This document shows positions 3,105 to 54,995 of a DNA stretch of 64,000 nucleotides, one piece after another. The notes below the pieces were generated by a model. The model was not told where the DNA came from and made no database searches. It saw nothing but the letters and a program-made list of their open reading frames with translations. The stretch is taken from contig OX597823.1 in assembly GCA_951406725.2 (NCBI GenBank), positions 31,248,001 through 31,312,000 of the forward strand, in the 5' to 3' direction. The number at the start of each line of letters is the position of its first letter. The first letter of the stretch is position 1. The position numbers were made by a program, and so were the translations under genes. This DNA comes from Octopus vulgaris (taxonomy: Eukaryota).

Positions 3105-3638
3105 TCCAGTTCTATATTTAAGAGATGAGGAATTATTTAAGTTATTTACATTATTTACATTTGACGGATAATTGTCCTCATCTTGTTTGTTGTTAACACA
3201 ACATTTCGGCTGATATACCCTCCAGCCTTCATCAGGTGTGTTGGGGAAATTTTGAACCTGGGTTCAAAAGTATTTTTCGATGTTGTTGTTGTTGTTGTTC
3301 TTCTTCTTCTTCTTATTATTATTATTCAGGTCACTGGAATCGAACTCGGAATCTTGGGGTTAGTAGCTCGCGCTCTTGACCACTTTGCCATATGCCCACG
3401 GGCATATGGCAAAGTAGTTAAGAGTGCATTTTTAGAGCTTATAAATCTAATATTTTTCTATCCTTCCTTAATAAGAGTTCCCATATGTTATCCATGTCTG
3501 CACTCGGTCTGCTTAGGAGGTGGTTGTGTCCTAGCATATGTGCTGCTTCTTTTAGCTTTCGTATTTTCCAGTGGTGTTAAAAAACAAAGAAGATGAAGAC
3601 AAATATCCGTCAAATGTAAATAATGTAAATAATGTAAT
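3105..3638 (-). mobile_element. 5'-truncated Penelope-like element: GIY-YIG C-terminus, fold-back, tRNA-like head, (AAT/AAC)n, hammerhead and tail, plus an inverted tail fragment at about 3575-3638
   Basis: Minus strand 3577-3439 translates HHWKIRKLKEAAHMLGHNHLLSRPSADMDNIWELLLRKDRKILDL*, homologous to 34490-34620. The downstream part matches 4124-4435 and 36472-36860. Confidence 0.8.
3195..3240 (-). ncRNA. Minimal type I hammerhead ribozyme motif
   Basis: ACAC-CUGAUGA-A-GGCUG(loop)CAGCC-GAAAU-GUU-GUGU. Confidence 0.75.
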
Positions 3639-3704
3639 TGCTTCTTTTCTCTGTTTTTGAAGTGTTGGAGGATCAGGCTGTTGGTGTGGGTGGTTGCTCT
3701 TGAT

Positions 3705-3970
3705 CAGTGGTTCCCAAACTTTGTTGGGATACCACCCCCTTGATGCCCAAGCCACATTCCTACCGCCCCACCCCCATCACAAACATGTATCTCTTTCTGA
3801 AGCAAATTCAAAGCAACTGTATTTCATAAATAAAACTTAATGCAATGAACCCATTATTTTGTTGTTTTTATATGAATCGGTACCCCATCATTGCACCACT
3901 TTTCTTCAACGGCCCCTTGGAACATTCCACCGCCTCTAGCGGGGAATACCATCCACTTTGGGAACCACTG
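3705..3970. mobile_element. hAT (Charlie-like) MITE
   Basis: 14-bp TIRs CAGTGGTTCCCAAA / TTTGGGAACCACTG and a perfect 8-bp TSD CTCTTGAT (3697-3704, 3971-3978). Confidence 0.92.
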
Positions 3971-4123
3971 CTCTTGATGTTGCTCTTGCTGTTCAGCCCC
4001 TTGTCTGTCTTCATGGCAAAGACCTTTGACTAAAACCTTCCAAGTCGTGACCATCCCGTTTTTGCTGTTGTTGTTGTTGTTGTTGCTAGACAACATCATC
4101 CAGTATGTCTTTTTAATACAATA

Positions 4124-4226
4124 GGGCCTATGGCGTAGTGGTTAAGAGTGCGGGCTACTAAACACAAGATTCAGAGTTCGATTCCAGGCAGTGACCTGAA
4201 TTATAATAATAATAATATTAACAATG

Positions 4227-4281
<55 letters not shown>

Positions 4282-4435
4282 TAACAACAACAGCATCGAA
4301 AATACCTTAGGAATAAGAACCTAGGTTCGAAATTTCCCCAGGACACCTGATGAAGGCTGGAGGGTATATCAGCCAAAATGTTGTGTTAACAACAAACAAG
4401 ATGAGGACAAATATCGTCAAATGTAAATAATGTAT
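4124..4435 (+). mobile_element. Stand-alone tRNA-head/(AAT)n/hammerhead SINE-like unit derived from a PLE 3' end
   Basis: A box TGGCGTAGTGG 4131-4141, B box GAGTTCGATTCC 4174-4185, hammerhead 4342-4387 (GAAAC mutated to AAAAT), flanking 31-bp direct repeat at 4095-4125 and 4436-4466. Confidence 0.8.
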
Positions 4436-4619
4436 ATCATTCAGAATGTCTTTTTAATACAATAGGATATCATTTAAGGGAGGTTTAACAGCTACTTCTA
4501 GCAGGTAGATCTACTACATAGATTCTCCAGATTGATTGTTGGGTTGTGCGGATGATTGATTGATTGAACGGTGGATGGTTTCTTCTGTTAACGAAAGAAA
4601 GAAGCTGTACACGTAATCC

Positions 4620-10890: not shown

Positions 10891-11477
10891 TACCAATACC
10901 ACTATCAACACTTACCTCTACCTTGGATTTTCTTTACCTCTTGGATACTTACCATTGGCTGCACCTCTCTTTCGCGGATCAAAGTGACTTTGCATTGATG
11001 TGAAATCCTTACAAAATATACCACGACGTCTACACATTTCTCACCTTGAACTTTCAACCTTGAACTTGAACTTGTTCGCATAAACTGTCCCGTTTGTTGT
11101 ATTTTTATTTCTTCTTATATTACCACTTTTTTTACATTCATTTCATGCTTCCCACATTTTCCTGAATTTTTGTTCTCCTTTCCGTCTTTCTTCCCTCTCT
11201 GGATGTCCATACTCCGTTTCCTCTGCCTGCACCCCCCCTTTTTTTGCCTCCCCCTCTCTCTGCTTCCCTTCTTTCTTTCCCTTTTCCGTTTGCCCCGTCT
11301 TTTCTGCCCCTATCGCTTACTTATCTAGTTTTTTCATACGATTATTATTTTTTTGTTTTTTTGAACGTTTGTTTTTTCCCCTTTTTTCGCTATCCTTTTT
11401 TTCTATTTTTTTCATACGATAATTTTTGTTTTTTGTTTTTTTTTGTTTTTTCGAACGTTTTTTTCCGCTATCCCATC

Positions 11478-14400
11478 ATGCCGGATCCTAGGTCCTACCT
11501 CCTCACCCTCCATCACCGTTTGAAGGATCATCTACGTTCTCTTCCTGTATATTGCCTTCAGCCGTCCGTTAATCTCTCTCTACTTCTTTTTAAAAAAACC
11601 CGCTTCTCTAGCCATGTCTCTTTCCTAAGCCGCTGCCTACATCACCGACTCATCCCTAAAGGTTTCCGCCTCCACTTCCACCCTGCTCTCCACTCGGATT
11701 CTTCCATCTTACCCATACTCCGCACCACATCTTACCGCCTTATGCGGGCCACCATTCGCTCCAATCTCTCCAAACTACATGCCATCAACCGCCTTCTTCC
11801 TCCTGCTTTCTCCACCTTCTTCTCCTCTCTGCCGCCTCTCTATGCTCCAAACACGCTACGCTTCATTATCCATTTGAATCAACTCTTCCATCAATTTCTT
11901 TCTGATACCAAACTTCGTAAACTCCAATCACTCTTCCATTCCACCCTACCCGACGCCACTACCCCAACTCCTCCACCACCCTTCTCCCCTCCCGATAGGC
12001 TCCATCCACCCACACCTAACCCCACTGCCCCTCCCTACAACCCCTTCTCCCCTCCCGTTAGGCTCCATCCACCTACACCTAACCCTACTGCCCCGCCCAA
12101 CCACCCCCCACACACCTCTCCAATCCCTCCCCCTCAGACCTCCCCGAGACCTACCACCCCTCCTACTTCTATTCCATCCACCCCTTCTCCACTTCCGTCT
12201 GTTGTTACCATTCCCCCCGATCTTCCCCTCTCTGCGGCTGAACGCTCCGTCCTTGGTAGGGGTCTGCGTTTCATCCCCCTCACTCCATCCTGTAAGGAAT
12301 ACCAGACGCGAGTTGATGTCCACAGCTTTGTGCGCCGTGTCCGGTTGGGTGCGCATTACCACGACTCGCCACCCACACCCAACGAAGAGGACGACTGCTT
12401 CACTGGCCTGGGCCGCCGACCATCCCCGTGGACGCCTGCCCCTGGCCAGATCCTAGCAGTGGATCTTTTCGCGGGCGCTTGTCAGCGTGCATTGGAGCGG
12501 TTCAACTTCTCCAGGCGCCAACGCCGCCTCAACATCTCCCCGGCTGAGCTCTTGGCTCTTCGTTCCCTCCAACGGCGCGCTGACATTATCATCAAACCGG
12601 CTGACAAGGGTGGAGCTGTAGTGGTGTGGCGCGCGGACCTCTATAGGGCCGAGGCTTTCCGCCAACTCAATGACACCTCCTTCTATTCCCCTCTGCCCTC
12701 TAACCCCACACGTAGCTACCAACAGACGGTATCCTCTACTGTCCAAGACCTCATCTCGTCCTCCCGTCTCCCCCGCACCGCATCCAACCTAATTGTGCGA
12801 ACCCCACGTACCCCCACCATTTACTTCCTCCCCAAAATCCACAAACCCAACAACCCTGGCCGCCCCATCGTCTCCGCCTGTAACTGCCCCACGGAGCTCA
12901 TCTCTAAATACCTCGACCGTGTCCTTGCCCCCCTAGTGGCATCTCTTCCCTCCCACATCCACGATACCAACCATGCTCTCCGGCTTTTCAACTCTTTCTC
13001 CTTTCCTCCCGGCTCCTCCAAAATCCTTTTTACTATGGACATCCAAAGCCTCTATACTGTTATCCCTCACCACGAAGGACTGCAGGCCCTTCGACACTTT
13101 CTTGACCTCCGCTCTAACCCTGTACCTGACACCTCCACACTCATTCGTCTGGCCGAACTTGTCCTTACTCTGAACTGCTTCTCGTTCGCGGGCGAGTTCT
13201 ACCATCAGGTCTCGGGAGTGGCCATGGGAACGCGAATGGGCCCCAACTATGCGAACCTGTTCGTTGGCTATGTTGAGGCCCAAATATTCTCTAATTTCAC
13301 TGGTCCCACTCCTGAACTATATGGTCGTTATATTGACGACATTATCGGTGCCACCTCACTCTCCCGCGAACATCTAGATTCCTTCCTCTCTTTCGTCCAA
13401 TCTTTCCATCCAGCCCTCCACTTCACTTCCACTATCTCCAACACCTCTGTCTCCTTCCTCGACATTTCGGTTAGCATTCTTCACTCCACTCTTACCACCT
13501 CCATTCACTACAAACACACAGACTCACACTCATACCTCAACTTCTCTTCCTCCCACCCAGAACACACCAAGCTTTCCATCCCCTATTCCCAATTCCTCCG
13601 TCTACGTAGGCTCTGCAGTGACGACCATGACTTTGAGACTCAGTCTCAACGTATGGCTCACCACTTCACCCTACGTGGATACCCCCTCACCACTATCCAC
13701 ACCGCCCTTGCCAGAGCACGGTCCGTGGACCGTGTATCTGCTCTCTCTCCCCGAACCCGCCCTGTAGTCTCCCGCCTCCCTTTTCCCCTCACTTACCACC
13801 CCACGACCCTACGTCTCCAACGCACCATTCTTCGAGCTTTCCGTCATCTCCAGTCCGACCCGTCCACTTCACACCTCTTCCCTAACCGACCCCTCCCCTC
13901 TTTCAAACGAGCCCACAACCTTCGAGACCTTTTGGTCCATAGCTCCTTCCCTGACCCTACCTCCCAACCCGGCTCGTTCCCCTGCTCCCGCCCACGTTGC
14001 CGCACTTGCCCTTACCTCTCCAACACCACCCGCCTCACTAGCACCCACCATCGACCCTATCCCATCATCCACTCCTTCACCTGCACCTCCAGCAATATTA
14101 TCTATTGCATCTCTTGCTCTCTCTGCAATTCCTTGTACATCGGACAAACGGGACGCCGCTTGGCTGACCGGTTCGCGGAACACCTTCGTGACATCCACCT
14201 TGCGAACGACACACCGGTCTCACGCCATTTCCGCTCCACCGGTCACTCCTTGCAACACCTATCTGTGTTCGGTTTGTCCTTACACAGAGGCCATCCGGAT
14301 TCCCGTTTGCGCCGTGAACAGGAATTAATCTTCTCTCTTCGCTCTTATACGCCATTTGGTCTCAACTCTCCCCCTCCTCATCTAACCCCCTCTCCCCACT

Positions 14401-14699
14401 CCTCACCTATCCTTTCTCCCCCGACCCCTACCTCTTCAGTCCTTCATCCTTTCACCCCTACTCCCTTTCCCTTCTTCCCTCTTTCTCCCTCCCTCTTCCC
14501 CTTCCCTCTGCTCCCTCACTCCCTCTCTCCCCTTCTCTCTCCCCCTCTCCCTCTTTCCTCCTTCATCCCCCTCATCCCCTTCCTTCTCCCCCATCCTCTC
14601 CTCTCCCCCTTCTCCTCCCCCTCTTCTCCCCCTCCCCCTCTTCTCCTCACTACACCACATGACTTTACACATCACATCACATATGATGTGCCATACTAA
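11478..14699 (+). CDS. PLE polyprotein: reverse transcriptase plus C-terminal GIY-YIG endonuclease (1073 aa from the first ATG)
   Basis: Motifs IIKPADKGGAVVV, PKIHKP..PGRPIVS, MDIQSLYT, GVAMGT, RYIDD, FLD, SSHP, a Cys-rich linker CSRPRCRTC, NIIYCISC..C..LYIGQT, R..EH and PFGLN. The track start at 11244 is a TTG in a T-rich leader. Confidence 0.95.
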   Translation: MPDPRSYLLTLHHRLKDHLRSLPVYCLQPSVNLSLLLFKKTRFSSHVSFLSRCLHHRLIPKGFRLHFHPALHSDSSILPILRTTSYRLMRATIRSNLSKLHAINRLLPPAFSTFFSSLPPLYAPNTLRFIIHLNQLFHQFLSDTKLRKLQSLFHSTLPDATTPTPPPPFSPPDRLHPPTPNPTAPPYNPFSPPVRLHPPTPNPTAPPNHPPHTSPIPPPQTSPRPTTPPTSIPSTPSPLPSVVTIPPDLPLSAAERSVLGRGLRFIPLTPSCKEYQTRVDVHSFVRRVRLGAHYHDSPPTPNEEDDCFTGLGRRPSPWTPAPGQILAVDLFAGACQRALERFNFSRRQRRLNISPAELLALRSLQRRADIIIKPADKGGAVVVWRADLYRAEAFRQLNDTSFYSPLPSNPTRSYQQTVSSTVQDLISSSRLPRTASNLIVRTPRTPTIYFLPKIHKPNNPGRPIVSACNCPTELISKYLDRVLAPLVASLPSHIHDTNHALRLFNSFSFPPGSSKILFTMDIQSLYTVIPHHEGLQALRHFLDLRSNPVPDTSTLIRLAELVLTLNCFSFAGEFYHQVSGVAMGTRMGPNYANLFVGYVEAQIFSNFTGPTPELYGRYIDDIIGATSLSREHLDSFLSFVQSFHPALHFTSTISNTSVSFLDISVSILHSTLTTSIHYKHTDSHSYLNFSSSHPEHTKLSIPYSQFLRLRRLCSDDHDFETQSQRMAHHFTLRGYPLTTIHTALARARSVDRVSALSPRTRPVVSRLPFPLTYHPTTLRLQRTILRAFRHLQSDPSTSHLFPNRPLPSFKRAHNLRDLLVHSSFPDPTSQPGSFPCSRPRCRTCPYLSNTTRLTSTHHRPYPIIHSFTCTSSNIIYCISCSLCNSLYIGQTGRRLADRFAEHLRDIHLANDTPVSRHFRSTGHSLQHLSVFGLSLHRGHPDSRLRREQELIFSLRSYTPFGLNSPPPHLTPSPHSSPILSPPTPTSSVLHPFTPTPFPFFPLSPSLFPFPLLPHSLSPLLSPPLPLSSFIPLIPFLLPHPLLSPFSSPSSPPPPLLLTTPHDFTHHITYDVPY

Positions 14700-15239: not shown

Positions 15240-15408
15240 CTTGTTTTATTTATATTTCCTGAGCGCCATACTAATACAATTGTTCGTTTGTTTTCCACCT
15301 GCCTTCGTCTTTTGTTTATTTTCATAAAGCTTCCCGTTATATATATATATATATATAGATATAGATATATATATAGATATATATATGTGCGTGTGTGTGT
15401 GTGTGTGA

Positions 15409-27760: not shown

Positions 27761-27929
27761 TCTTCCTACCACAAAGCGCCACCTATTGTGGAAAGGTAAA
27801 CAGTTCCCAAATTTCAAAAAGGCCAAAGAAACATAACTCTTTTATATGCCTGCACCGAAAACATTTATCAAATGCGACGACATAATAAACTTCGAATGCA
27901 AAACAGACATTTTCTACTGACATTATTTA

Positions 27930-28123
27930 TATTATTTACATTTGACGGATATTTGTCCTCATCTTGTATGTTATTAATACAACGTTTCGGCTGATATACT
28001 CTCCAGCCTTCAACATGTCTCTTGGACATATGGCGTAGTGGCTAATAGCGCGGGCTACTAACCCCAAGATTCCGAACTCGATTCCAGGCAGTGACCTGAA
28101 TAATAATACTAATGATGATAATG

Positions 28124-28207
<84 letters not shown>

Positions 28208-29108
28208 GGTGCATTAGGCATGATAAAAAAATATTCAGATAAATACATAACAAAAACACCAGGACTTACAAACACATATAACATACAGAAAATTGCACTA
28301 CTAGGCACTGCACACATCCTACGTAGAACACTTTCCATACAATAACCATCAGAGAATCACAACAAATCACAGCACATACCCAAGGCACACAGAGCTGCGC
28401 TCGGTAGTGAAGTGAAAGCACGCTATAAAAATAAAACTACTGAATAATAATAATAATAATAATAAGAGAAATTAAGGCCAACAGACCAGATATAGTTGTC
28501 AGAGACCATGAAGAAAAAAAATGCTTTCTAATTGATGTATCAGTACCGGCAGATGACAACGTGTCTCTAAAAGAAATGGAGAAACTCTCAAAATACAAAG
28601 ACCTGGAAATAGAGGTAACTAGAATGTGGAATCTGAAAACAGAAACAATTCCTATCATAGTAGGTGCATTAGGCATGATAAAAAAATATTCAGACAAATA
28701 CATAACAAAAACACCAGGACTTACAAACACATATAACATACAGAAAATTGCACTACTGGGCACTGCACACATCCTACGCAGAACACTTTCCATACAATAA
28801 CCATCAGAGCATCACAACAAATCACAGCACATACCCAAGGCACACAGAGCTGTGCTCGGTAGTGAAGTGAAAGCACGCTATAAAAATAAAAATAAAACTA
28901 CTGAATAATAATAATAATAATAATAATGATAATAATAATAATAATAATAATAATAGCAGCAACAACAACAATAACAACGACAACATCGAAAAATACCTGA
29001 GGAATGAGAACCCAGGTTCGAAATTTCCCCAAGAAACAAGATGAGGATAAATATCAGTTAAATGTAAATAATGTAAATAATTCCTCATCTTTTAAATATA
29101 GAACTGTA
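27930..29108 (+). mobile_element. tRNA-head/hammerhead-family unit with inverted 5' pLTR piece (27930-28023), interrupted by two R4/Dong fragments; hammerhead deleted from the plus tail
   Basis: Head GGACATATGGCGTAGTGG at 28024; tail CATCGAAAAATACC...AATGTAAATAAT at 28984-29108. Confidence 0.8.
28207..28902 (+). mobile_element. Two tandem 5'-truncated R4/Dong-like non-LTR retrotransposon 3' ends (28207-28441, 28465-28902) in (AAT)n
   Basis: RLE motifs NRPDIVV...CFLIDVSVP...EKLSKYKDL...IPIIVGALG...IQKIALLGTAHILR; near-identical 3' UTRs ending AAAACTACTG(AAT)n. Confidence 0.85.
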
Positions 29109-29942
29109 TTTTCTACTGACTCACAAAGACTGTAAAGATACCAAAAAACGAACACTCACACACACATACTGATTTCAAATTTTGGCACATGGCCAGCCAG
29201 TTCGGGAAAGGGAGTAAGATGACTACCAGTCTTCAACTGGTACTTATTTTATCGACCCCGAAACGATGAAAGTCAAAGTCGATCTCGGCGGAATTTGAGC
29301 CACGTAAGCATATATTTTGAAAAGCTTAAGAGATTCCACGGGAGTAAATTTATATTAAAAATCAAAACCAAACAGTGAGTAAGCAAGTATTTACATTTTT
29401 TAATGAAAATTTGGTACCGATTTCAATCGCTTTCAAAAAACCCGATGTAGGTATGCTGAAATAAAAGGGAAAATATTTTTAAATAAATAAGATAGAATTA
29501 ATAACTTAATAACTAGTGTTATCAGATCTGGAAGTTCAGGTGTTTCTCTTACAAAAACCATATGGGTTCTGGTGTTTCGTTTACCTTCTGATTGTTCAAC
29601 AATTCAACATTAAACCGAAGGATCAGTCAGTACGTTTTTTTAGTAGAGTACACATTAAACTTTTACACCGGAAAGGTTGACAGTGACTTCGATGTTTCCG
29701 TTTGTCACTCGTCACCAAACGGAATGAAAGTCTAAAACATGTGTCAGTCTTTTCCGTGTTAAAATTAACACACAAATACATGTAATAATGTGTATGTGTA
29801 TATATATATATATAAACATATATATGTAATATACAACAAAAGACGTGGGTGTATTTCTACGCAGGAAAAATATGGGCAAATTTGTTGTTGAGAATGCACC
29901 TAAATTTGAAAAACTTGTAATTGTTTAAAATAAATTTATTAC

Positions 29943-34340: not shown

Positions 34341-35001
34341 CAGGTGTCTTGGGGGAAATTTCGAAGGGTAGACGAACATCGCAAACTGTGATACGAGAAG
34401 ATACTGATAAATCGGGTATAGCTGATCATGTATGGACAAATGGAGTCCACCTTCCCCTGTGGGATGAAGTTAAAATAATAGACAGAGAACACCACTGGAA
34501 AATATGAAAACTGAAAGAAGCAGCACATATACTAGGACACAACAACCTCCTAAGACCGGGTGCAGATATGAGTATTATATGGGAACCGGTATAAAGGAAG
34601 GAGAGGAAAATATTAGATCTATCTCTTATTATAAAAGGCAGATTTTATCTGCCTCCCTTTGTATCTTATAGAAATCTACAATATAGGATTTCTTCAATTA
34701 CAATCTACCTAGCATTTTTAAGAGTAGAATGCATCGGGTCGTGCCAGGTCCACTTTTTAAAATTTCAACCCCAATTAAGCAAAATTTAGAGAAAACTCAC
34801 ATTGTGGTGTATGAGTCAAATGCTTCTCTTAGTGTGGGATACAGCACACGCAAACGCACACACACAGTGGGCAACGAATAAAATGAAAGTAATTCACTTT
34901 CTGTAGTGAGTGACTCTTTCACTCTGCCTCCCACTTCCTCTTTACACACATAGACACGCAAATATATAAATAAAATTGTAAGCTAACGTGCGTGTGTGTG
35001 A

Positions 35002-35034
<33 letters not shown>

Positions 35035-35080
35035 TGAGGGTGCGTGTGTGTGTGTGTGCGTGTGCGTGAGTGTGTGACAG

Positions 35081-35590
35081 GAAAGTTTTTTACGACGAAT
35101 ATAAGACCTATATACAAGTAGCAGAAAGATCGACCAAAAGTGTATATAGATATTTAAATGTATTTATATATTCATCTATACACAGATGTATGTATAATGT
35201 GTGTGTATATATTTCCATAGAGGTAACCTTTCACTCCATACAAAGTTTTTTAGGACGAATATAAGATCTAAAGTATATACAAGTAGCAGAAAGATCGCCC
35301 AAAAGTGTATATAGATATTTAAATGTATTTATATATTCATCTATACACAGATGTATGTATAATGTGTGTGTATATATTTCTATAGACGTAACCATTCACT
35401 CCATACAAAGTTTTTTTGGACGAAAATAAGATCTAAAGTTATCTCTAAGAAACAGAAAGATCGCCCAAAAGTGTATATAGATATTTAAATGTATTTATAT
35501 ATTCATCTATACACACATGTATGTATAATGTGCGTGTATATATTTCCATAGAGGTAACCATTCAATCCATACAAAGTTTTTTAGGACGAA
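35081..35590. repeat. About 163-bp tandem repeat, three copies plus a partial, inside the Helitron
   Basis: AAAGTTTTTT.GGACGAA recurring at about 35082, 35242, 35407 and 35572. Confidence 0.85.
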
Positions 35591-35841
35591 AATATTTATA
35601 TATAAAAGAAAGGTTGTGTGTCTGTCTACTCCGATTTAGATTCCTAACTACTCCCATATTTTGCGATGCAGTTTAACCAAAACCGGGTATCTTATAGTCG
35701 TGATTCATATCGAGCCCTTCTGGGTATTAGCGCACGTCTACGATGAGTCGATGATTTTACAAATAATTTACCATCATTTTTTTCCATTTTAATGCATATT
35801 TTTTTTAATAAAGGGAAGTAACTCTCAAACTTCACACCAAT

Positions 35842-36363
35842 ATGCGTGCTCATATGCGACGTAATATCACATCAGCAGCATTTCCTCACACCCTCCTTGC
35901 ACTTGGCGAAGGCAAAATACCAGGGGATGAAAATGGTAATATTGCCATCGATTCCATTTGTACCATTGTTAAGACGCCTTCTGATCTCAGAGATGCAGTG
36001 TTCCCAGATCTACAAGCTAATTATCAGAATATGGATTGGATTGGCAAAAAGGCTATACTGGCCCCGAGGAATAAAACTGTTCACCATATTAATGATGAAA
36101 TGCTAAAACTCATTCCTGGGGAAGTCTATGTATATCAGTCTATCGATACAACTCCTGACCCAGAGGACGTCATCAACTATCCAATAGAGGTACTCAATTC
36201 CTTTGAGCAACCCGGACTACCACCACACTTTCTCAAACTTAAAGTTGGTGCCCCTATAATGCTCATCAGAAATTTGGTTCCCCCAAAACAATGCAATGGC
36301 ACACGTTTGATCGTTAAGTCCTTATCTCCCACCGTAAACTTATATCAATATTTGCCTGAATAA
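35842..36363 (+). pseudogene. PIF1-type helicase fragment of Helitron RepHel
   Basis: AILAPRN..V..IN and GLPPHFLKLKVGAPIMLIRNL.P...CNGTRL motifs; internal fragment only. Confidence 0.88.
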
Positions 36364-36521
36364 TCATCATAATTCAGTGCAATCATTAACAGTACTTTCA
36401 AGCAATTCAGCCCCGAGCAACGCCGGGCAATTCTGCTAGTAAGTCCTAAAATTCACTCCATAATTACCCACAGGCATATGGCGTAGTGGTTAAGAGCGCG
36501 GGCTATTAACCCCATGATTCC

Positions 36522-36617
<96 letters not shown>

Positions 36618-36625
36618 TGATGATG

Positions 36626-36676
<51 letters not shown>

Positions 36677-36756
36677 GTAATAATAATAATAATAATAATA
36701 ACAACAACTTCGAAAAATGCCTTAGGAATGAGAACCCAGGTTCGAAATTTCCCCAA

Positions 36757-36802
36757 GACACCTGATGAAGGCTGGAGCGTATATCAGCCGAAACGTTGTG
36801 TT
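36757..36802 (+). ncRNA. Intact minimal type I hammerhead ribozyme motif
   Basis: GACAC-CUGAUGA-A-GGCUG(GAGCGUAUAU)CAGCC-GAAAC-GUU^GUGUU; palindromic AACGUU stem III. Confidence 0.85.
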
Positions 36803-37564
36803 AACAACAAACAAGATGAGGGCAAATATCCGTCAAATGTAAATAATGTAAATAATGTTCATATTTTTTGTGTTTTAACCTTGTTACGCTCCATAATAAC
36901 TGTTCTCAAGCCATTGATTGCTGTTACAGCTTTCTCTCAGAGTAGGAACTGATTATTGATATGAAGCCTTATTGTTCCCGAGAGAAATCCATCAGGTCTA
37001 ATAAACAAACAAACTTGTATTACGACATTTATTATTAGAAACATTGAACTAAGTTTCTCTCCCAGAGAGGATTTGTTGAGGAGACACATCTGTAATATAT
37101 ATACGAATCAGAGTTCGATTATTGGAATCAAAGCCACAAATGCTCACATGTTTCCGCGATGATCAATTAGATACCATAGCCATTAGGTGCTAAAGCCTGT
37201 CAGAAGATATCACACAGATAAGGAAGGTCAGGGTGGAACATGACGAGATGCTCCAACTGACCACATCAAGATTCCTGACAATTAATTTGACTTCTCTAAT
37301 TCTTAAGATAATGCAATTAAACAACCAATCAATGAAACTAAAGATTATTCATTGATCTTTGGCCCATGCCCTCCAACTTAGAATAAAGGACCAGCTAAAG
37401 ATTATGGTTGCAATTATAAACACATTTTGAATATTGTTCTGATGATTTATTCGGTATAAAATATTGGTCGAAAATAATGACGGATGTAAGTGGTCTTGGA
37501 GGGGTGGAGGGGGAAGAGGAAGAGAAAGAATGTGATGATTTCATACCATTACGATAAGAGAAGA

Positions 37565-53832: not shown

Positions 53833-54121
53833 CAACAATAACCGCAATAATAATAATTGTGATGATGATGTTGATGATTTTTAAAAACTATATTTTCAAA
53901 TAATAATGATCATATTGCTGATTATATTTTTTTGATAAAGCAGTAATAACGTCAAGATCAATAAAAGCAACGATAACAGTAACAAGAATGATAAGAATGA
54001 TTTCAAATGTTTGGCACGAGGCCAGCAATATTGGAGGGGATGGCGAGTAAGTCGAATACATCGACCCCAGTGCATCAACTGGTACTCATTTTATCGACCA
54101 CAAAAGGATGAAATAATAATA

Positions 54122-54156
<35 letters not shown>

Positions 54157-54193
54157 CAACAACAACAACAACAGCAACAACAACAACAACAAC

Positions 54194-54224
<31 letters not shown>

Positions 54225-54238
54225 GTAATAATAATAAC

Positions 54239-54363
<125 letters not shown>

Positions 54364-54374
54364 TAATAATAATA

Positions 54375-54995
54375 AAAAACACAAACCACCCCCAGTGCTT
54401 GAAAGTGATCACATCTCACTCCTCTGGAACTTCACCATTCAAACTGACAGAAAGATAGATGCGAATAGGCCAGACAACGATGCGAGTAGGCCAGACAACA
54501 TATTGAAAGACTTCAGAAAAAAATCATGCTTCCTCATTGATATGACTGTCCCAATCGTTATAAACTTATCTGTCAAGACCTACCAAAAACTGAGCAAATA
54601 TAAAGATCTTGAAATAGAAATTAGCAAAATGTGGAACCTGAAGACTAAAACAAGACCTGTTGTCATAGGTGCCCTGGGAATGATAGCAAAAGGGGCTGAT
54701 TACTACCTAGCTCAGATACAAGGAAACCCCAAAATGGCAGAAATTCAAAAGATAGTGCTCATGGGAACTGCTCATATCCTACGCAAAATACTTTCTATGT
54801 AATCTCAAGTTTTAAAACAAACATAATTTTCTTATGGATCTTAAACATTCTCTAGAACAACACTATGTACAAAAACGAAATATATGGCACCCTAGGCATA
54901 ACACCAACATGAACTTCCAACTTGTTGTCTCTTGAGGTCTCTGGGTGAGACCTGGAGCCAACTTGTACAAATGTAAAGCAAAAGTCAAGCATAAA
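54375..54995 (+). mobile_element. R4/Dong-like RLE-domain 3' fragment (second subfamily) within (AAT)n
   Basis: LLWNFTIQTD..IDANRPD...CFLIDMTVP...KLSKYKDL...VVIGALG...GTAHILRK. Confidence 0.85.

Follow-up and report, generated by a model that had tools for sequence, protein, structure and literature searches.

A 64,000-nucleotide stretch of Octopus vulgaris DNA (GenBank assembly GCA_951406725.2, contig OX597823.1, positions 31,248,001 to 31,312,000 of the forward strand), here called the window, holds variously complete copies of a cassette in which a tRNA-like segment, an (AAT)n microsatellite and a minimal hammerhead ribozyme succeed one another, in part directly behind the endonuclease end of a Penelope-like element (PLE). 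The question raised by this locus is whether the cassette is a self-cleaving SINE that a PLE mobilises, as a sequence-only reading had proposed, or a part of the PLE itself. Positions are counted from the first base of the tRNA-like segment (+1), which we call the head, and from B1 to B177 along the 177-nt part that follows the microsatellite.

Copies of the cassette in the window

The copies seen in the window are degenerate, 'dead' representatives of an abundant PLE (Table 1). The succession of endonuclease C-terminus, tRNA-like head, (AAT)n, minimal hammerhead and 9-nt repeat is present in copies A (3577-3107, minus strand) and D (34365-36858, plus strand), the latter interrupted by a Helitron and deprived of its B box, just as the sequence-only reading had described them. 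The closeness of stop codon and head also stands, but the junction of copy A is not native, since a 12-nt longer inverted head piece replaces part of it; the native gap measures 29 nt. In copy A one private variant recurs in both palindrome arms even though the ORF upstream of them is native, a pattern suggestive of a template switch or of hairpin correction at a later stage. The start of copy B between near-identical direct repeats was borne out. Copy C had been described as free of upstream PLE sequence, but an inverted hammerhead/tail piece (28025-27920) lies upstream of it; copy C is an inverted pair, a composite (27922-29107) inside a 13-nt direct repeat. A hammerhead had been assigned to the cassettes in general; among the window pieces only copies A and D match the descriptor, whereas the core of copy B is broken by a change of G12 to A. 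Rfam makes no tRNA or hammerhead call in the window, its matches amounting to microsatellite noise, and ARAGORN makes no tRNA call on the head there; both miss the head because it is too decayed.

Table 1. Positions of the cassette copies and their parts in the window.
Copy	Feature	Position	Strand	Remark
A	Last 46 codons of the PLE ORF (endonuclease C-terminus)	3439..3577	-	Stop TAA 3441-3439; matches the ORF end of L010 and 29 other loci
A	Palindrome	3370..3427	.	Centre 3398/3399; upstream arm is an inverted head piece replacing part of the native junction
A	tRNA-like head	3325..3397	-	A box (one variant stretch) and B box
A	AAT/AAG/AAC microsatellite spacer	3282..3324	-	
A	ORF start as repeated in the pseudo-LTR	3107..3281	-	Minimal hammerhead (~3240-3196), 9-nt repeat, 25-nt optional tail; 3107 end presumably the second RT start site
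A	Short inverted 5′ partner (tail region)	3571..3635	+	Typical of PLE insertions
B	Left direct repeat, 31 nt	4095..4125	+	Last two letters overlap the head
B	tRNA-like head	4124..4199	+	A and B boxes both intact
B	(AAT)n spacer	4200..4290	+	
B	ORF-start region	4291..4435	+	Hammerhead 4342-4387, core broken at 4375; 4435 end presumably the first RT start site
B	Right direct repeat	4436..4466	+	29/31 identical to the left repeat
C	Inverted hammerhead/tail arm directly upstream of the head	27920..28025	-	
C	Head, split (AAT)n and 3′ part	28024..29107	+	Head 28024-28100; (AAT)n split by fragments of another retroelement; hammerhead deleted from the 3′ part
C	13-nt direct repeats flanking both arms	27909-27921 and 29108-29120		
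D	Endonuclease C-terminal fragment	34365..34610	+	
D	Helitron at the last codons of the ORF	34611..36439	+	Ends approximate; Pif1 2B domain 35812-36360
D	Native junction, head, (AAT)n, hammerhead, 9-nt repeat	36440..36858	+	Head from 36473, B box deleted; hammerhead intact (core 36762)

The Helitron of copy D sits in the stop-codon region, and a Helitron-like end is found near the same junction in another locus (L006, ~1170-1480); a target preference common to the two junctions is possible. Fragments from the 3′ part of another retroelement lie inside (AAT)n tracts at 28208-28880 and 53939-54802, the spacer of copy C included. By eye they contain a restriction-enzyme-like endonuclease motif, and this retroelement may target the (AAT)n microsatellite. 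The window also carries a second, unrelated PLE (11166-14699, plus strand) with an intact long ORF of 974 amino acids from the first ATG, an RVT_1 match and a weak GIY-YIG match; it is only 29% identical to the tRNA-headed family, and a hammerhead-like motif with a variant core is seen by eye in its 3′ region near 15250.

The coding element and its tRNA-derived head

We searched the genome with 316 nt of the endonuclease, including nothing of the head, and kept the best 30 of 2,620 candidate loci, 29 of them besides the query. The head follows the endonuclease stop in 27 of these 29, in 26 by BLAST and in one more with an internal deletion; the two exceptions are a locus that breaks off at the junction and another that has the tail without the head. 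Among 29 loci chosen on the RT, 13 reach the ORF end and every one of these carries the head there (one locus is also in the endonuclease-chosen set), while of ten loci chosen with protein seven reach the junction, six running through the head, including a copy 82-85% alike, and one breaking at +8. The loci chosen by search are in each case the top 30 among hundreds to thousands of candidates and thus lean to young copies. The endonuclease-head junction, looked for in other genomic PLE copies as a challenge to the sequence-only reading, is the family norm (27/29 and 13/13), and the head hence belongs to a protein-coding element, apparently of Penelope/Poseidon type. A tRNA-less sister family was sought with a distant protein, and all 10 loci examined of the 58 listed proved to be the same tRNA-headed family; in three decayed loci of metagenome relatives, a small sample, the head is visible by eye in none. 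The element is present in 17 of 100 evenly spaced, unselected 10-kb tiles, mostly in its short form, which scales to about 50,000 loci in the microsatellite-rich host genome of 2.8 Gb. Sequencing runs carrying six different organism labels also contain cassette words, which makes the family common to related species.

The majority sequence of 57 copies is a single open frame of 794 amino acids (2,382 nt), which together with about 48 amino acids within the pseudo-LTR (pLTR) makes an ORF of 842 codons. Pfam detects RVT_1 on a natural copy (E 2.8e-10), the RT piece is 44% identical to an Anolis protein, and relatives including Anolis, insect and sea-urchin proteins share 42-72% identity; by this protein similarity, rather than by a tree, the element would be assigned to the Penelope/Poseidon type. 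With regard to GIY-YIG, Pfam is silent on the 46-aa window fragment as well as on P0003, a relative at 63% identity, while the C-terminus resembles Anolis P0091 by eye and PF01541 is found in some relatives.

The unit is ordered as ORF end, tRNA-derived head, (AAT)n and hammerhead-bearing ORF start. In 28 of 35 loci chosen on the first 200 nt of the ORF, the pLTR repeat is fused upstream of the ORF as a partial tandem, with the hammerhead region joined in frame, and in 8 of the 35 the head stands upstream of the next ORF, an arrangement that the sequence-only reading had anticipated for tandem insertions. In two natural copies (L331 and L366) the frame that begins with the ATG at B24 stays open across the hammerhead and the 9-nt repeat and continues into the ORF, and P0003 has a matching N-terminus. 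The hammerhead and the 'tail' encode the start of the 842-codon ORF, and the latter, originally taken for the tail of a SINE, is the N-terminal coding part. The minimal-hammerhead descriptor matches the majority sequence and none of 20,000 shuffles, and the hammerhead is intact in only 2 of 24 endonuclease-chosen copies.

The head itself is identical to host tRNA-Arg(TCG) at 42 of 66 positions (64%), the best among 27 distinct tRNAs from 30 loci and six isotypes, with no Arg(ACG) among them. Its acceptor and T stems no longer pair; the A and B boxes are kept and match the polymerase III consensus, the A box beginning at the 14th base after -6, a spacing typical of SINEs. The head probably goes back to an old tRNA-derived SINE that landed immediately after the stop codon. 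In all copies the A box (head +6..+14) also contains a short upstream ORF of two codons, ATG GCG TAG, which precedes the main ATG. As for the tRNA genes of the host, T4 or longer lies downstream in 25 of 30, and at eight of the 30 loci (L201, L212, L216, L218, L219, L223, L226 and L227) the start of one common repeat lies within a few bases downstream of the terminator, as would be expected of an element inserting behind polymerase III genes.

Ends of the copies and the origin of their RNA

The 5′ ends were surveyed in a tail-chosen set, in which three tail-only searches gave 90 loci and 84 were kept after three window copies and three duplicates had been dropped. Out of 135 segments 57 reach the head and 51 reach +19; 49 of these 51 end between -17 and +19 and two pass the boundary, one more (L269) doing so outside the filter. 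Matches at -17 to -10 come from inverted pieces of the head that resemble the native arm; the native letters end at about -6/-7, which places the 5′ boundary some 6 bases upstream of tRNA +1. The truncation rate amounts to 0.047 per base between -17 and +19 against 0.002 in the endonuclease region and the head interior, and to 0.002-0.007 per base in the hammerhead region (B). Of the 13 segments with a head in the unselected tiles, 10 end between -7 and +15 and three pass. The boundary is also passed by six of 11 head-reaching segments in the ORF-start-chosen set, and longer tandem or circular templates thus exist as well, of a kind that has been proposed for PLEs (PMC4209133). Unstranded RNA reads of a related species (three runs), used only as a sample of genomic junctions, fall roughly fourfold in depth at the junction (~1,045/1,166 to 227/317), where loose ends occur at -7, -3 and +1; contigs from two further runs have loose ends at similar places. 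On the polymerase the RNA reads are uninformative, 76-82% of them continuing into unlike sequence with no start site standing out. The enrichment of 5′ ends at the head, which the sequence-only reading had named as a check, is therefore found in tail-chosen, tile and related-species data, though genome-wide the starts spread from about -7 to +17 and do not fall exactly on tRNA +1 as it had held. An RNase P cut at +1 was rejected as the boundary: many copies retain 2-7 native letters ahead of +1, and the two sides of the acceptor stem are unable to pair.

At the other end, 18 of 23 3′ ends in unselected tiles fall at B151-153 or B176-177, two sites 25 nt apart that lie about 129 and 154 nt after the ATG and about 60 and 85 nt past the predicted ribozyme cut. 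By analogy these would be internal RT start sites, as in Anolis Poseidon RT is described to start at two sites inside the ORF start, with the stretch between them forming an optional tail (PMC11167929). Several copies share ends further on, at ORF +231-237 (L323, L327, L330, L347 and L380) and at +264-268 (L324 and L338); these are possibly additional RT start sites, a view biased by the 200-nt search query. The hammerhead cut was set aside as the element boundary: the 3′ ends are located beyond it, and 5′ ends show no clear excess at the predicted cut (0.0074 per base near it against 0.0055 and 0.0042 beside it). Target duplications of at least 10 nt flank 36 of 69 loci, compared with 2.6% in shuffled pairs, and those of at least 12 nt flank 30 of 69 (15 of the 84 loci were left out, their 5′ edge lying inside a microsatellite); duplications of at least 20 nt are found in 0 of 69, so that the 31-nt repeat of copy B is atypical.

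We lean towards the head being the element's internal polymerase III-type promoter, from which the RNA would start about 6 bases upstream of the tRNA-like part. The element's RT/endonuclease would then begin to copy at two internal sites, in analogy to Anolis Poseidon. On head-started RNA the RT would run out of template after some 300-400 nt and leave a SINE-like short copy, and on longer tandem or circular RNA it would run on into the endonuclease and RT region and leave long copies. The short form would accordingly be the element's pLTR amplified alone, with no second family.

The majority head and downstream part contain no TTTT, as had been claimed, and TTTT is missing from the whole 2,382-nt majority ORF and pLTR as against 29 AAAA. 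The absence has P values of 0.045 by synonymous shuffle, 0.012 by base shuffle and 0.11 by dinucleotide shuffle, and GGGG is absent too (P 0.07); following the dinucleotide and GGGG controls we downgraded it as strong proof of polymerase III. The window's other PLE, from a T-rich distant family, is not depleted in TTTT (6 vs 7.2 expected). A more far-reaching version of the promoter model, which we consider doubtful, is that the whole coding element of about 2.7 kb would be transcribed end to end by polymerase III from the captured tRNA promoter, over a sense strand cleared of TTTT, with a TCTTT as a leaky stop giving the short SINE-like RNA and with the read-through RNA processed by the hammerhead and translated without a cap. 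The ORF contains a single TCTTT, about 80 nt past B177, the second putative RT start. In mouse B2, TCTTT is described to stop about half of the transcripts (PMC12101331), an analogy that suggests a leaky stop here.

The boundary could also arise with the head as a mere passenger, if RT stalled, or the cDNA snapped back, at the junction hairpin on a long read-through RNA. A hairpin indeed spans the boundary (about -17 to +15, -13.4 kcal/mol) and could have either effect, and many junctions hold a perfect inverted head piece around a two-base loop, an inverted partner being present in 57 of the 84 tail-chosen loci. A stall should however end copies at the 3′ foot of the stem, whereas many pass the loop and stop 2-7 bases later, few going further; inverted partners are equally common in copies truncated elsewhere, and the stronger fold of the hammerhead shows no such pile-up, leaving this explanation unlikely.

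Alternatively, the boundary might be a true RNA start set by polymerase II, through a TATAA that stands at the stop codon, 28 bases upstream of -6 in the majority junction, with the tRNA boxes as relics or an enhancer and the full-length RNA as a capped mRNA. The TATAA would allow polymerase II, mapped PLE promoters are described as lying in the pLTR and behaving as polymerase II promoters (PMC2377424; PMC8557442), that of Drosophila Penelope being internal and LINE-like (PMC2377424), and some transcript must be translated into protein. Both boxes have nevertheless been kept while the tRNA stems decayed, the A box has the spacing noted above, and TTTT is missing from the unit, which is a weak argument; we regard this possibility as quite improbable.

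That the short form is a real SINE lineage, its solo copies transcribed by polymerase III and recopied by the PLE protein independently of the long element, is very improbable: although short copies outnumber long ones, have boxes and target duplications and are slightly less diverged (6.3% vs 8.0%), no diagnostic base separates short from long heads, the letters upstream of the head are native or inverted with no shared foreign flanks, and the Anolis Poseidon template is described as needing the first 172 nt of the ORF (PMC11167929) against 154 nt in a solo copy.

Comparing 54 short with 35 long copies, the majority base is the same at 77 of 77 head positions, and the six nominal differences all reflect additional decay of the long copies; the missing diagnostic bases are compatible with re-transcription of solo copies. 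Since short and long heads share the majority base throughout, we file the short form as amplified pLTR. The separate, self-cleaving SINE of the original proposal is not supported given this identity, the coding nature of its 'tail', 3′ ends that lie past the cut and the lack of clear enrichment at the cut; supported from that proposal are the endonuclease-head junction and the concentration of 5′ ends at the head. With a length below 1 kb, interspersed distribution, at least 100 copies and at least 60% tRNA identity over at least 60 nt (42/66), the short form agrees with SINEs as delimited in SINEBase (PMC3531059). The same source asks for source genes of their own and for a LINE RT copying from the RNA 3′ end, whereas the short form lies entirely within the coding element, and its ends, tail, inverted partners and parent are of PLE type. 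Tail-chosen and tile copies are singles or inverted pairs and form no head-to-tail arrays of the tandem kind that marks retrozymes; the parent is a coding PLE with pseudo-LTRs, as opposed to the non-coding TRIMp3 elements with two LTRs, PBS and PPT. The short form looks like a SINE and may work like one, but it probably represents the leading part of the RNA made by the element itself and no separate parasite.

PLE transcription and the origin of pseudo-LTRs are poorly known. In this family a sharp putative RNA start and two putative RT starts are preserved in tens of thousands of insertions; the pLTR would then extend from the RNA start to the RT start, a reading that is directly testable. 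If polymerase III drives the element, a coding retroelement and its SINE-like form would share one promoter, the family would represent a stage between the capture and the birth of a SINE, and it would be a counter-example to the argued dependence of autonomous partners on polymerase II. Part of the SINE annotation in such genomes may be PLE.

Comparison with known systems

Octopus tRNA-derived SINEs, OK, OR1 and OR2, were reportedly described by Ohshima and Okada in 1994. OR1 and OR2 are of Arg origin; the short form likewise has a tRNA-Arg-like head and may already bear one of these names. Schistosome SM-alpha repeats carry a tRNA-like promoter. Like the short form they are short and SINE-like and have a type I hammerhead, but as described (PMC8490949), with no mention of a coding parent that has the cassette in common with them, they differ from the octopus cassette, which has an identified coding parent and a hammerhead that is coding sequence. 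OR2 has been called a CORE SINE (PMC4758252), and a recent octopus repeat annotation leaves most of the recently active SINE families unclassified, its main text never mentioning ribozymes (PMC13282606).

Non-LTR retrozymes (bioRxiv 10.64898/2026.07.22.740005) and MRC1 (PMC8557442) are, like the short form, short non-coding derivatives of PLE pLTRs with hammerheads; as described in these sources they are tandem or internally deleted and have no tRNA head, whereas the octopus copies are dispersed singles or inverted pairs. With TRIMp3 elements such as Cassandra, Helenus and Ajax the family would share a promoter for polymerase III, derived from a small RNA, in the terminal repeat, for which insertion of a SINE was likewise proposed. 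TRIMp3 are described as non-autonomous LTR elements, while the octopus tRNA segment lies in the repeat of a coding element from another retroelement class, and their author argues that autonomous partners must use polymerase II (PMC10886601).

The closest likeness in architecture is to Anolis Poseidon PAc (PMC11167929) and D. virilis Penelope (PMC2377424), as far as these accounts describe them: a single ORF with RT and, on the octopus side putatively, a C-terminal endonuclease, a pLTR whose minimal hammerhead overlaps the ORF start, 3′ ends fixed at two sites, an optional tail, copies in partial tandem or with an inverted partner, and target duplications. Each PLE feature of the element is in this sense already known (PMC8557442, PMC4209133, PMC11167929). 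We found no description of a tRNA-headed PLE in those parts of the open literature that the searches covered. The octopus pLTR differs from those of Penelope and Poseidon, as described (PMC11167929, PMC2377424), in being led by a tRNA-derived A/B-box segment and a microsatellite, with most copies stopping there, and what may be new relative to known PLEs is this tRNA-derived segment in the repeat of the protein-coding element itself.
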